Made by a program: the position numbers and the translations under genes. A DNA stretch of 64,000 nucleotides from Escherichia coli (GTDB lineage Bacteria; Pseudomonadota; Gammaproteobacteria; Enterobacterales; Enterobacteriaceae). Shown piece after piece: positions 2,532 to 16,883 of the stretch. Within the stretch, counting starts at the first letter, position 1. The number at the start of each line of letters is the position of its first letter. Under the pieces are notes generated by a model. That model did no database searches and had not been told where the DNA came from. It saw only the letters and a program-made list of their open reading frames with translations. The stretch is from NCBI RefSeq assembly GCF_051903065.1, contig NZ_CP178438.1; one strand, given 5' to 3'.

Positions 2532-2990
2532 ATGTTCCGGGGAGCAACGTTAGTCAATCTCGACAGCAAAGGGCGCTTATCAGTGCCTACCCGTTATCGG
2601 GAACAGCTGCTTGAGAACGCTGCCGGTCAAATGGTTTGCACCATTGACATTCATCACCCGTGCCTGCTGCTTTACCCCCTGCCTGAATGGGAAATTATCG
2701 AGCAAAAATTATCGCGTCTGTCGAGCATGAACCCGGTTGAGCGCCGTGTGCAGCGCCTACTGTTAGGTCATGCCAGCGAATGTCAGATGGATGGCGCAGG
2801 TCGATTGTTAATCGCGCCAGTACTGCGGCAACATGCCGGGCTGACAAAAGAAGTGATGCTGGTTGGACAGTTCAACAAGTTTGAGCTGTGGGATGAAACA
2901 ACCTGGCATCAACAGGTCAAGGAAGATATCGACGCAGAGCAGTTGGCTACCGGAGACTTATCGGAGCGACTGCAGGACTTGTCTCTATAA
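2532..2990 (+). CDS. mraZ: Transcriptional regulator MraZ
   Basis: 152-aa product starting [16 protein letters not shown] within the 2496-2990 ORF; first gene of the dcw cluster. Confidence 0.96.
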
Positions 2991-2991
2991 A

Positions 2992-3933
2992 ATGATGGAA
3001 AACTATAAACATACTACGGTGCTGTTGGATGAAGCCGTTAATGGCCTCAATATCCGTCCTGATGGCATCTACATTGATGGGACTTTTGGTCGCGGTGGTC
3101 ACTCACGTCTGATCCTCTCGCAGCTTGGCGAAGAGGGGCGTTTGCTGGCGATCGATCGCGACCCGCAGGCTATCGCCGTTGCGAAGACTATTGATGATCC
3201 GCGCTTCTCCATCATCCACGGACCTTTCTCCGCGCTGGGCGAATACGTTGCCGAGCGCGATCTTATCGGCAAGATCGACGGCATTCTCCTCGATCTTGGT
3301 GTCTCTTCACCGCAACTTGATGATGCTGAACGCGGCTTTTCCTTTATGCGCGATGGTCCGCTGGACATGCGTATGGACCCAACCCGTGGGCAGTCAGCCG
3401 CTGAATGGCTACAAACCGCAGAAGAAGCCGATATCGCCTGGGTATTGAAAACCTATGGTGAAGAGCGTTTTGCCAAACGCATTGCCCGCGCCATTGTCGA
3501 GCGTAACCGCGAACAGCCGATGACCCGCACCAAAGAACTGGCGGAAGTCGTGGCTGCTGCAACGCCGGTGAAAGATAAGTTTAAACATCCCGCGACCCGT
3601 ACCTTCCAGGCGGTGCGCATTTGGGTAAACAGTGAACTGGAGGAGATAGAGCAGGCGCTAAAAAGCTCGCTCAACGTGCTGGCCCCGGGGGGGCGGCTTT
3701 CGATCATCAGCTTCCACTCGCTGGAAGACCGTATTGTGAAACGTTTTATGCGTGAAAACAGCCGCGGTCCGCAAGTTCCGGCAGGGTTACCGATGACTGA
3801 AGAGCAGCTCAAAAAACTGGGTGGCCGTCAGCTGCGAGCACTAGGCAAGTTAATGCCGGGCGAAGAAGAGGTGGCTGAGAACCCTCGTGCCCGTAGTTCA
3901 GTTCTGCGTATTGCAGAGAGGACGAACGCATGA
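2992..3933 (+). CDS. rsmH: 16S rRNA m4C1402 methyltransferase RsmH (MraW)
   Basis: 313-aa product starting [16 protein letters not shown]; SAM-binding motifs; start chosen inside the longer 2863-3933 ORF, one nt after mraZ stop. Confidence 0.95.
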
Positions 3934-4295
3934 TCAGCAGAGTGACAGAAGCTCTAAGCAAAGTTAAAGGATCGATGGGAAGCCACGAGCGCCATGCATT
4001 GCCTGGTGTTATCGGTGACGATCTTTTGCGATTTGGGAAGCTGCCACTCTGCCTGTTCATTTGCATTATTTTGACGGCGGTGACCGTGGTAACCACGGCG
4101 CACCATACCCGTTTACTGACCGCTCAGCGCGAACAACTGGTGCTGGAGCGAGATGCTTTAGACATTGAATGGCGCAACCTGATCCTTGAAGAGAATGCGC
4201 TCGGCGACCATAGCCGGGTGGAAAGGATCGCCACGGAAAAGCTGCAAATGCAGCATGTTGATCCGTCACAAGAAAATATCGTAGTGCAAAAATAA
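3930..4295 (+). CDS. ftsL: Cell division protein FtsL
   Basis: 121-aa bitopic membrane protein with leucine-zipper-like periplasmic region; ATGA overlap with rsmH stop. Confidence 0.95.
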
Positions 4296-4310
4296 GGATA
4301 AACGCGACGC

Positions 4311-13609: not shown

Positions 13610-13662
13610 TTGTAGCGATGCCTTTTGCATCGTATGAATTTAAGAAGTTAATGGCGTAAAGA

Positions 13663-15138
13663 ATGAATACACAACAATTGGCAAAACTGCGTTCCATCGT
13701 GCCCGAAATGCGTCGCGTTCGGCACATACATTTTGTCGGCATCGGTGGTGCCGGTATGGGCGGTATTGCCGAAGTTCTGGCCAATGAAGGTTATCAGATC
13801 AGTGGTTCCGATTTAGCGCCAAATCCGGTCACGCAGCAGTTAATGAATCTGGGAGCGACGATTTATTTCAACCATCGCCCGGAAAACGTACGTGATGCCA
13901 GCGTGGTCGTTGTTTCCAGCGCTATTTCTGCCGATAACCCGGAAATTGTCGCAGCTCATGAAGCGCGTATTCCGGTGATCCGTCGTGCCGAAATGCTGGC
14001 TGAGTTAATGCGTTTTCGTCATGGCATCGCCATTGCAGGAACGCACGGCAAAACGACAACTACCGCGATGGTCTCCAGCATCTACGCAGAAGCGGGGCTC
14101 GACCCAACCTTCGTTAACGGCGGGCTGGTAAAAGCCGCGGGGGTTCATGCGCGTTTGGGGCATGGTCGGTACCTGATTGCCGAAGCAGATGAGAGTGATG
14201 CATCGTTCCTGCATCTGCAACCGATGGTGGCGATTGTCACCAATATCGAAGCCGACCACATGGATACCTACCAGGGCGACTTTGAGAATTTAAAACAGAC
14301 TTTTATTAATTTTCTGCACAACCTGCCGTTTTACGGTCGTGCGGTGATGTGTGTTGATGATCCGGTGATCCGCGAATTGTTACCGCGTGTGGGACGTCAG
14401 ACCACGACTTACGGCTTCAGCGAAGATGCCGACGTGCGTGTAGAAGATTATCAGCAGATTGGCCCGCAGGGGCACTTTACGCTGCTGCGCCAGGACAAAG
14501 AGCCGATGCGCGTCACCCTGAATGCGCCAGGTCGTCATAACGCGCTGAACGCCGCAGCTGCGGTTGCGGTTGCTACGGAAGAGGGCATTGACGACGAGGC
14601 TATTTTGCGTGCGCTGGAGAGCTTCCAGGGGACTGGTCGCCGTTTTGATTTCCTTGGTGAATTCCCGCTGGAGCCAGTGAATGGTAAAAGCGGTACGGCA
14701 ATGCTGGTCGATGACTACGGCCACCACCCGACGGAAGTGGACGCCACTATTAAAGCGGCGCGTGCAGGCTGGCCGGATAAAAACCTGGTAATGCTGTTTC
14801 AGCCGCACCGTTTTACCCGTACGCGCGACCTGTATGATGATTTCGCCAATGTGCTGACGCAGGTTGATACCCTGTTGATGCTGGAAGTGTATCCGGCTGG
14901 CGAAGCGCCAATTCCGGGAGCGGACAGCCGTTCGCTGTGTCGCACAATTCGTGGACGTGGGAAAATTGATCCCATTCTGGTGCCTGACCCGGCGCAGGTA
15001 GCCGAGATGCTGGCACCGGTATTAACCGGTAACGACCTGATTCTCGTTCAGGGGGCTGGTAATATTGGAAAAATTGCCCGTTCTTTAGCTGAAATCAAAC
15101 TGAAGCCGCAAACTCCGGAGGAAGAACAACATGACTGA
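13663..15138 (+). CDS. murC: UDP-MurNAc:L-Ala ligase MurC
   Basis: 491-aa ORF; Mur ligase P-loop GTHGKTTT. Confidence 0.96.
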
Positions 15139-16051
15139 TAAAATCGCGGTCCTGTTGGGTGGGACCTCCGCTGAGCGGGAAGTTTCTTTGAATTCTGGCG
15201 CAGCGGTGTTAGCCGGGCTGCGTGAAGGCGGTATTGACGCATATCCTGTCGACCCGAAAGAAGTCGACGTGACGCAACTGAAGTCGATGGGCTTTCAGAA
15301 AGTGTTTATCGCGCTACACGGTCGCGGCGGTGAAGATGGTACGCTGCAGGGCATGCTCGAGCTGATGGGCTTGCCTTATACCGGCAGCGGAGTGATGGCA
15401 TCTGCGCTTTCAATGGATAAACTACGCAGCAAACTTCTGTGGCAAGGTGCCGGTTTACCGGTCGCGCCGTGGGTAGCGTTAACCCGCGTAGAGTTTGAAA
15501 AAGGCCTGAGTGATAAGCAGTTAGCAGAAATTTCTGCTCTGGGTTTGCCGGTTATCGTTAAGCCGAGCCGCGAAGGTTCCAGTGTGGGAATGTCAAAAGT
15601 AGTAGCAGAAAATGCTCTACAAGATGCATTAAGATTGGCATTTCAGCACGATGAAGAAGTATTGATTGAAAAATGGCTAAGTGGGCCGGAGTTCACGGTT
15701 GCGATACTCGGTGAAGAAATTTTACCGTCAATACGTATTCAACCGTCCGGAACCTTCTATGATTATGAGGCGAAGTATCTCTCTGATGAGACACAGTATT
15801 TCTGCCCCGCAGGTCTGGAAGCGTCACAAGAGGCCAATTTGCAGGCATTAGTGCTGAAAGCATGGACGACGTTAGGTTGCAAAGGATGGGGACGTATTGA
15901 CGTTATGCTGGACAGCGATGGACAGTTTTATCTGCTGGAAGCCAATACCTCACCGGGTATGACCAGCCACAGCCTGGTGCCGATGGCGGCACGTCAGGCA
16001 GGTATGAGCTTCTCGCAGTTGGTAGTACGAATTCTGGAACTGGCGGACTAA
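15131..16051 (+). CDS. ddlB: D-alanine--D-alanine ligase B
   Basis: 306-aa ATP-grasp enzyme; overlaps murC 3' end by 8 nt. Confidence 0.96.
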
Positions 16052-16052
16052 T

Positions 16053-16883
16053 ATGTCGCAGGCTGCTCTGAACACGCGAAACAGCGAAGAAGAGGTTTCT
16101 TCTCGCCGCAATAATGGAACGCGTCTGGCGGGGATCCTTTTCCTGCTGACCGTTTTAACGACAGTGTTGGTGAGCGGCTGGGTCGTGTTGGGCTGGATGG
16201 AAGATGCGCAACGCCTGCCGCTCTCAAAGCTGGTGTTGACCGGTGAACGCCATTACACGCGTAATGACGATATCCGGCAGTCGATCCTGGCATTGGGTGA
16301 GCCAGGTACCTTTATGACCCAGGATGTCAACATCATCCAGACGCAAATAGAACAACGCCTGCCGTGGATTAAGCAGGTGAGCGTCAGAAAGCAGTGGCCT
16401 GATGAATTGAAGATTCATCTGGTTGAATATGTGCCGATTGCGCGGTGGAATGATCAACATATGGTAGACGCGGAAGGAAACACCTTCAGCGTGCCGCCAG
16501 ATCGCACCAGCAAGCAGGTGCTTCCAATGCTGTATGGCCCGGAAGGCAGCGCCAATGAAGTGTTGCAGGGCTATCGCGAAATGGGGCAGATGCTGGCAAA
16601 GGACAGATTTACTCTGAAGGAAGCGGCGATGACCGCGCGGCGTTCCTGGCAGTTGACGCTGAATAACGATATTAAGCTCAATCTTGGCCGGGGCGATACG
16701 ATGAAACGTTTGGCTCGCTTTGTAGAACTTTATCCGGTTTTACAGCAGCAGGCGCAAACCGATGGCAAACGGATTAGCTACGTTGATTTGCGTTATGACT
16801 CTGGAGCGGCAGTAGGCTGGGCGCCCTTGCCGCCAGAGGAATCTACTCAGCAACAAAATCAGGCACAGGCAGAACAACAATGA
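16053..16883 (+). CDS. ftsQ: Cell division protein FtsQ
   Basis: 276-aa bitopic protein with POTRA-like periplasmic domain; starts 1 nt after ddlB stop. Confidence 0.95.

Follow-up and report, generated by a model that had tools for sequence, protein, structure and literature searches.

The dcw cluster of the window is organized as in E. coli K-12

We analyzed the gene junctions of the dcw (mra) cluster in a 64,000-nt stretch of an Escherichia coli genome (contig NZ_CP178438.1 of RefSeq assembly GCF_051903065.1; hereafter the window, with positions counted from its first nucleotide). Junctions and open reading frames (ORFs) were re-read and translated directly from the window sequence. Gene coordinates were those of the RefSeq annotation (offset 2501), taken from the record of E. 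coli strain 23CRST027, which is 100% identical to the window. Sixteen genes lie on the + strand in the order mraZ-rsmH-ftsL-ftsI-murE-murF-mraY-murD-ftsW-murG-murC-ddlB-ftsQ-ftsA-ftsZ-lpxC, which is the order that defines an E. coli-type dcw cluster. All 16 ORFs are intact, and each is equal in length to its K-12 counterpart. From mraZ to lpxC (17,841 nt), the window is colinear with K-12, with 0 indels and 154 substitutions (0.86%), only three of which fall within 25 nt of any junction.

The initial annotation had described the cluster as a known organization, intact here, and had proposed comparison with a reference as a check. This description was borne out: the window shares with the dcw cluster of E. 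coli K-12 MG1655 (b0081-b0096) the 16 genes, their order, their strand, and the stop/start distances at 15/15 junctions. The two differ by 12 amino-acid changes in total and by an IS1 element ~565 nt upstream of mraZ in the window; the junctions are unaltered. Moreover, of 5,426 complete E. coli genomes, 5,423 have a match covering 80% or more of the 15-kb stretch around the junctions. Junction overlaps in the dcw cluster have long been known, are conserved, and are ordinary for a bacterial operon; they have already been described and are no discovery. The scientific weight of the observation itself is very little, namely that an essential operon for the cell wall and cell division is intact in this strain and organized as in the reference. 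The junctions are as follows, with the distance from stop to start codon (negative where genes overlap) and its occurrence in other species.

2988..2994, + strand: mraZ/rsmH, stop TAA at 2988-2990 and start ATG at 2992, 1-nt gap; -1 to +5 in 29/29 Enterobacterales
3930..3933, + strand: rsmH/ftsL, ATGA, -4; -4 in 25/29 Enterobacterales
4293..4313, + strand: ftsL/ftsI, 15-nt spacer with TAAGGA, not tight; -17 to +80 in Enterobacterales
murE start GTG at 6064 and ftsI stop TAA at 6075-6077, + strand: ftsI/murE, -14; the same in 30/30 Enterobacterales
7548..7551, + strand: murE/murF, ATGA, -4; the same in 30/30 Enterobacterales and 31/44 other gammaproteobacteria
8900..8906, + strand: murF/mraY, ATGTTAG, -7, preceded by a conserved CAGGAGA; the same in 32/32 Enterobacterales
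9980..9987, + strand: mraY/murD, stop TAA and start ATG, 2-nt gap; +2 in 26/32 Enterobacterales
11299..11303, + strand: murD/ftsW, TGATG, -1; the same in 29/31 Enterobacterales
12542..12545, + strand: ftsW/murG, ATGA, -4; the same in 26/29 Enterobacterales
13607..13665, + strand: murG/murC, 53-nt spacer, which interrupts the run of tight junctions; 50-180 nt in Enterobacterales
15131..15138, + strand: murC/ddlB, ATGACTGA, -8; the same in 19/22 Enterobacterales
16049..16055, + strand: ddlB/ftsQ, stop TAA at 16049-16051 and start ATG at 16053, 1-nt gap; +1 in 24/25 Enterobacterales
16880..16883, + strand: ftsQ/ftsA, ATGA, -4, with a weak Shine-Dalgarno (SD) sequence and a conserved A-rich leader, AACAACA; the same in 19/27 Enterobacterales
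Beyond the range covered by the initial annotation: ftsA/ftsZ, +60 nt; 56 to 115 in Enterobacterales
ftsZ/lpxC, +100 nt

Stop and start codons overlap or nearly touch at most junctions

Across the 13 junctions between mraZ and ftsA, neighboring genes overlap at eight, and stop and start codons either overlap or lie within 2 nt of each other at 11. Ten of the 13 fall in the range of -8 to +6 nt, and one further junction, ftsI/murE, is at -14. Each of the ten junctions listed in the initial annotation was found in place; its list had left out mraY/murD (+2), ftsL/ftsI (+15), and murG/murC (+53). Mis-annotated start codons were rejected as a source of the overlaps: across ~30 species, the starts keep the same positions and TGATG/TAATG keeps its shared A. 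At murD/ftsW, the shared A is retained in those Enterobacterales where the murD stop codon is TAA in place of TGA. The spacer between murG and murC holds a small stem-loop (CGATGC-CTTTT-GCATCG).

Of all unidirectional gene pairs in E. coli, 707/2,987 (24%) lie at -8 to +6 nt (PMC10666635), against which the 10/13 of the dcw cluster give a binomial P of 8.7e-5. In the window and its flank, 11/13 dcw junctions are within 2 nt compared with 5 of ~29 other same-strand pairs (Fisher P = 6e-5). Within-operon pairs are, however, a fairer yardstick than all pairs of the genome, and against a within-operon baseline of 40-60%, which is assumed and not an exact figure, P ranges from 0.008 to 0.17. The dcw cluster is denser than a typical operon, yet it is not extraordinary, and a long operon of essential genes might be as compact.

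This weak enrichment over an operon-like baseline is in line with neutral compaction, in which deletion bias, loss of stop codons, and shifts of start codons bring genes together, and overlaps persist as indels there would hit two genes, with no function in coupling. Such junctions are also common in E. coli generally: besides the 24% of unidirectional pairs at -8 to +6 nt, >30% of pairs overlap (PMC7538156). Whether the packing is more than compaction is a question on which cross-species conservation bears.

Tight junctions are near-invariant in Enterobacterales and stay tight beyond them

We collected 80 gammaproteobacterial loci, one genome per species, using MraY as an anchor and taking up to 10 kb on each side. 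Orthologs were located by tblastn; the upstream gene's stop codon was taken, and the start was the codon nearest to the aligned E. coli N-terminus. In the 32 Enterobacterales of this sample, the distances at tight junctions are near-invariant, while the three loose spacers (ftsL/ftsI, murG/murC, and ftsA/ftsZ) drift. Exact overlap phases change in Vibrionales, Pasteurellales, Alteromonadales, and other orders; ftsI/murE, for example, is found at -14, -11, -8, -1, or +8. Descriptively, 305 of the 516 junction observations (59%) in the more distant gammaproteobacteria are still at -8 to +6 nt, compared with the E. coli genome baseline of 24%.

A drift of phases outside Enterobacterales is what neutral compaction would lead one to expect. 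Nevertheless, the retention of tightness in distant lineages despite this turnover (59% vs 24%) suggests that tightness is maintained, and the drift of ftsL/ftsI and murG/murC indicates that spacer length is not mutationally frozen. The cross-species distance table separates geometries that are fixed in Enterobacterales from those that drift freely, and it could guide tests of coupling.

Some junctions differ between the two groups of species. The ftsL/ftsI junction is open in Enterobacterales (+8 to +80 in most) but is at -4 in 26/47 other gammaproteobacteria. Similarly, murG/murC is open in Enterobacterales and often short in the other group, with -4 as its most frequent value there; in most of the other gammaproteobacteria sampled, both junctions are either overlaps of -4 or very short gaps. 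The mraZ/rsmH junction shows the reverse pattern, being tight in Enterobacterales, with a median of 28 nt in other gammaproteobacteria. Cluster composition differs as well: the Vibrio, Photobacterium, and Shewanella loci showed no ddlB homologue in the interval from murC to ftsQ.

The ends of upstream genes carry the predicted ribosome-binding sites of downstream genes

Next, we considered where ribosomes might initiate on each gene. SD:anti-SD duplexes of -6 to -10 kcal/mol are predicted before ftsL, ftsI, murE, murF, mraY, ftsW, murG, and ddlB. For seven of these genes (ftsL, murE, murF, mraY, ftsW, murG, and ddlB; predicted -6.5 to -9.7 kcal/mol), the SD sequence lies inside the upstream ORF. 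By comparison, the predicted duplexes at rsmH, murD, ftsQ, and ftsA are weak (-3.6 to -4.8 kcal/mol). Several SD cores are at least 90% identical in up to 33 Enterobacterales, namely GAGG for murE, CAGGAGA for mraY, AAGGT for murD, and AGGAG for ftsW.

Synonymous codon usage at the ends of the upstream genes is constrained. In codon-aware alignments, the normalized synonymous codon entropy of the last eight upstream codons at tight junctions is 0.44 vs 0.73 in gene bodies (46 vs 2,531 columns, Mann-Whitney P = 2.8e-12). The corresponding values for the three loose junctions are 0.63 and 0.75 (P = 0.47, with 12 columns only). The strong constraint on these last eight codons suggests that the ribosome-binding site of the next gene is embedded there. 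Setting aside the part that double coding explains (see below), the remaining constraint is what embedded ribosome-binding sites would produce, judging from sequence. The 3' ends of ftsI, murE, murF, mraY, murD, ftsW, murC, ddlB, and ftsQ appear to serve also as ribosome-binding sites for the essential gene that follows, so that adding a C-terminal tag, deleting sequence, or recoding at the native locus would have polar effects on the neighboring gene.

The conservation of SD cores at synonymous positions within upstream genes is also difficult to reconcile with compaction that has no role in expression. On balance, we regard neutral compaction as an unlikely account of the tight junctions.

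Protein outputs are unequal across overlapped junctions

The geometry of the cluster permits coupling by termination-reinitiation. This mechanism works for other E. coli gene pairs in the -8 to +6 range (PMC6728339, PMC10666635), and four of five native E. coli ATGA pairs tested were coupled (PMC6728339). Taken to its limit, it would amount to a strict ribosome relay, i.e. chained termination-reinitiation in which one set of ribosomes translates gene after gene and makes products in fixed, near-equimolar amounts. The ten of 13 junctions at -8 to +6 nt, where native E. coli pairs reinitiate, agree with such a relay. However, ftsL/ftsI, murG/murC, and ftsA/ftsZ fall outside the distances expected for coupling (~-8 to +10 nt). 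Reported losses of reinitiation are 5-70% at +2, 40-80% at +14, and almost total at +38 (PMC10666635), and the spacers of +15, +53, and +60 nt would therefore break the chain.

A relay also makes a prediction on protein output, since the downstream gene of a coupled pair should not out-produce the upstream gene. We took outputs from the Li 2014 ribosome-profiling figures as quoted in two later papers (PMC4428075, PMC10214165). In MOPS complete medium, the quoted copy numbers are 416 for FtsL, 349 for FtsI, 293 for FtsW, 336 for FtsQ, and 984 for FtsA (PMC4428075). The levels quoted for MurC, MurD, MurE, MurF, and MraY are similar to one another; MurG has about half that level and FtsW 20-25% of the Mur level (PMC10214165). 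By these figures, output rises across the overlapped junctions ftsI/murE (~4-fold), ftsW/murG (~2-fold), and ftsQ/ftsA (~3-fold, from 336 to 984), and it falls 4-5 fold over the 1-nt overlap at murD/ftsW. Along murE-murF-mraY-murD, by contrast, the reported outputs are similar and compatible with coupled pairs, as a relay would have it. In the partial rows of Mori 2021, whose units are unverified and which we use only qualitatively, the values are 3.8e-4 for MurE, 1.7e-4 for MurF, 2.2e-4 for MurD, 7.4e-5 for MurG, 5.6e-5 for MraY, and 4.9e-5 for FtsQ, with FtsW undetected.

Where a gene yields more protein than the upstream gene it overlaps, reinitiating ribosomes cannot be its main supply. 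The rises in quoted output at three overlapped junctions thus imply that independent initiation dominates there, or else that extra mRNA is available, as is possible for ftsA. Genome-wide data point in the same direction: depletion of the ribosome recycling factor (RRF) leaves the ribosome-density ratios of neighboring genes unchanged, overlapping pairs included (Saito et al.; PMC7538156). Those authors concluded that reinitiation is not dominant in E. coli and favored de novo initiation together with melting of mRNA structure. In light of the unequal outputs, the interrupted chain, and the RRF result, we consider a strict relay along the dcw cluster very improbable.

The initial annotation had read the overlaps as consistent with translational coupling across the operon. 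The geometry does permit coupling at individual junctions; the unequal outputs and the broken chain, however, speak against coupling that is operon-wide.

Only the murD/ftsW junction is predicted to sequester its start site

Ribosomes that finish an upstream gene could also promote translation of the next gene without reinitiating. If downstream start sites were buried in mRNA structure that only these ribosomes melt, initiation would be unmasked gene by gene; this is the mechanism that Saito et al. favor for E. coli generally (PMC7538156). We folded 90-nt windows at all 15 starts and compared them with dinucleotide shuffles. Only two starts fold better than shuffles, murD/ftsW (z = -2.78) and the ftsA-ftsZ spacer, which has a hairpin (z = -2.62). 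The first of these is the following feature.

11283..11322, + strand: predicted hairpin at murD/ftsW, in which the ftsW SD (GAAGGAG) pairs with ftsW codons 4-7 and encloses the stop/start codons; 2/200 shuffles are as good

The position of this hairpin is suggestive, as quoted output falls 4-5 fold at this junction even though the SD is strong. On the other hand, between mraZ and ftsA, predicted folding is no stronger than in shuffles for 12 of 13 junction regions (z from -1.5 to +1.2), and one z of -2.8 among 15 folded regions does not reach significance. The sequence of the hairpin is shared by 15 Enterobacteriaceae but is missing outside this family, and it is absent where the N-terminus of FtsW differs. 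No covariation was found at the hairpin in these 15 Enterobacteriaceae: 86.7% of cells are paired vs 86.2% in column-preserving shuffles, 181/500 of these shuffles reach the observed pairing, and a single double-sided change is seen. Across the tight junctions, we found no stable conserved structure occluding the downstream SD or start codon, with only murD/ftsW standing out. The scarcity of unusual structure (one of 15 initiation regions, at a tight junction) would also fit neutral compaction.

We consider it quite unlikely, then, that unmasking of structured start sites explains the junctions of the cluster as a whole. The predicted SD-sequestering hairpin at murD/ftsW is a lead and is not established.

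Gene-specific initiation probably sets output, with a weak contribution from coupling

Of the possibilities considered, a standard dcw (mra) architecture in which gene-specific initiation at embedded sites sets the outputs, with coupling contributory in a weak sense, is in our judgment the probable one. A long polycistronic mRNA would be made from the promoter Pmra and supplemented by internal promoters near ftsQ/A/Z. Tight packing would place the SD sequence and start codon of each downstream gene within the final codons of the upstream gene, and ribosomes would initiate at every embedded site with a gene-specific efficiency that sets the output of each protein. The closeness of stop and start codons may then let an upstream ribosome assist, either by keeping the site unfolded or by occasional reinitiation. 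The sequences show the geometry, the match to K-12, the conservation among species, and the added constraint at synonymous positions; we infer that initiation is mostly de novo, with a contribution from coupling at some junctions. Coupling is most plausible along the murE-murF-mraY-murD run because the quoted outputs are similar along it. Within this flat-output run, murD has a weak SD of its own and starts 2 nt after mraY.

Several points weigh against this interpretation. The quoted outputs are second-hand and blend translation with possible differences in mRNA level from internal promoters or processing. Double coding in the longer overlaps (-7, -8, and -14) explains part of the synonymous constraint. 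The homology-anchored choice of start codons leans toward E. coli-like distances in other species, and, as the sampled species are phylogenetically related, the pooled cross-species P values and counts are descriptive only. Moreover, we found no direct coupling test of any dcw pair, and dcw pairs go unmentioned in the coupling literature searched; the relative shares of de novo initiation and coupling are accordingly inferred only.

Comparison with better-characterized gene pairs places the cluster in context. The pairs hyfH-hyfI, menD-menH, ydbH-ynbE, and astD-astB (Huber et al., 2019, 2023) have the same ATGA/TGATG geometry, with the SD embedded in the upstream gene. Coupling in those pairs was tested by premature stop codons and two reporters, whereas the dcw junctions are known here from their geometry, and their quoted outputs are unequal. 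The structure-melting pairs trpB-trpA and rplK-rplA (Saito et al., 2020) resemble dcw pairs in being co-oriented, with the downstream site in or beside the upstream ORF; they differ in that, in the dcw cluster, only murD/ftsW has a predicted sequestering structure, and this is without covariation support. Lastly, natural fusions MurE-MurF, MurD-FtsW, MurC-Ddl, and MurG-MurC are known (PMC10214165). These involve the same adjacent pairs, and in E. coli the stop codon overlaps the start codon in murE/murF, murD/ftsW, and murC/ddlB. Each pair in the window nevertheless keeps its own stop and start codon and is not fused, and murG and murC are 53 nt apart.

The C-terminal tail of PBP3 overlaps the murE initiation region

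Upon closer inspection of the ftsI/murE overlap, we noted that it falls in a part of the protein that E. coli removes. The Prc protease cleaves PBP3 (FtsI) at V577, which takes off 11 residues (PMC9827838). The corresponding nucleotides of the window are as follows.

6039-6041, + strand: ftsI codon for V577
6042-6074, + strand: 11-codon tail of ftsI, with the stop codon reaching 6077; the tail carries the murE SD (GAGGGG) and the murE start codon GTG at 6064

In 31 Enterobacterales sequences (30 species and the window), the overlap is always -14; in 30 of them murE starts with GTG, and in the remaining one with ATG. Most of the invariant nucleotides in the tail belong to GAGG, CAgGTG, and GATCGTAA, which are bases that murE needs. 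Two invariant elements fall outside the bases needed by murE, namely the codon of V577, where Prc cleaves, and AAT, which encodes N579.

It is conceivable, although we think it unlikely, that the Prc-trimmed tail of PBP3 is in essence a translated murE ribosome-binding site. Arguing against the tail being such a by-product, a valine is likewise present 11 residues before the end of PBP3SAL, a Salmonella paralogue (PMC9827838). If the by-product reading were true, the tail, and possibly its removal, would exist mainly since ftsI reads through the initiation region of murE and not for the function of PBP3. The gene for PBP3SAL is, we presume, not adjacent to murE in Salmonella. Separately, a small RNA (sRNA), FtsO, is annotated inside ftsI in K-12 (92485-92658); the equivalent position in the window is 5383-5556.

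Transcription signals and other features in and near the cluster

Transcription from Pmra is reported to start 38 bp upstream of mraZ, with the sole terminator after lpxC (PMC7761207). The best promoter-like site of the cluster is at a position that fits Pmra.

2451..2480, + strand: sigma-70-like match TTGACA-18-TAAACT, 10/12, a consensus match only

By consensus scan, promoter-like sites inside the cluster are not in excess over shuffle expectation, and the number of terminator-like sites (21) is close to the 20.3 expected from shuffles.

The IS1 element upstream of the cluster has the following coordinates.

1200-1967: IS1, 768 bp
1191-1199 and 1968-1976: 9-bp target duplication, TGGCGCGTA

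It lies ~45 nt past the cra stop codon and seems to sit in a short inverted repeat (CGCGCCAG...CTGGCGCG) that follows cra. This IS1 is missing from K-12, whose cra-mraZ spacer is 601 nt vs 1377 nt in the window. Among 5,426 complete E. coli genomes, the exact IS1 junction is present in only two, which are sister isolates, and a third carries a different IS1B close by. We found no evidence of an effect of IS1 on the operon; the element is located upstream of, and beyond, the promoter-like site at 2451-2480.

Further features cluster around ftsA/ftsZ. The 3' end of ftsA and the ftsZ leader (18122-18211) match the Rfam family PssrA (RF02797, described as a plasmid-encoded Shigella sRNA) with 105.5 bits, and this stretch contains the stable hairpin GAGGCCG...CGGCCUC (z = -2.62). 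An antisense RNA, StfZ, is annotated across the ftsA/ftsZ junction in K-12. Finally, on the - strand, a 393-aa ORF (18164-19345) runs antisense to nearly all of ftsZ. Codon bias often produces such frames opposite highly conserved genes, and this ORF is probably an artefact of that kind.

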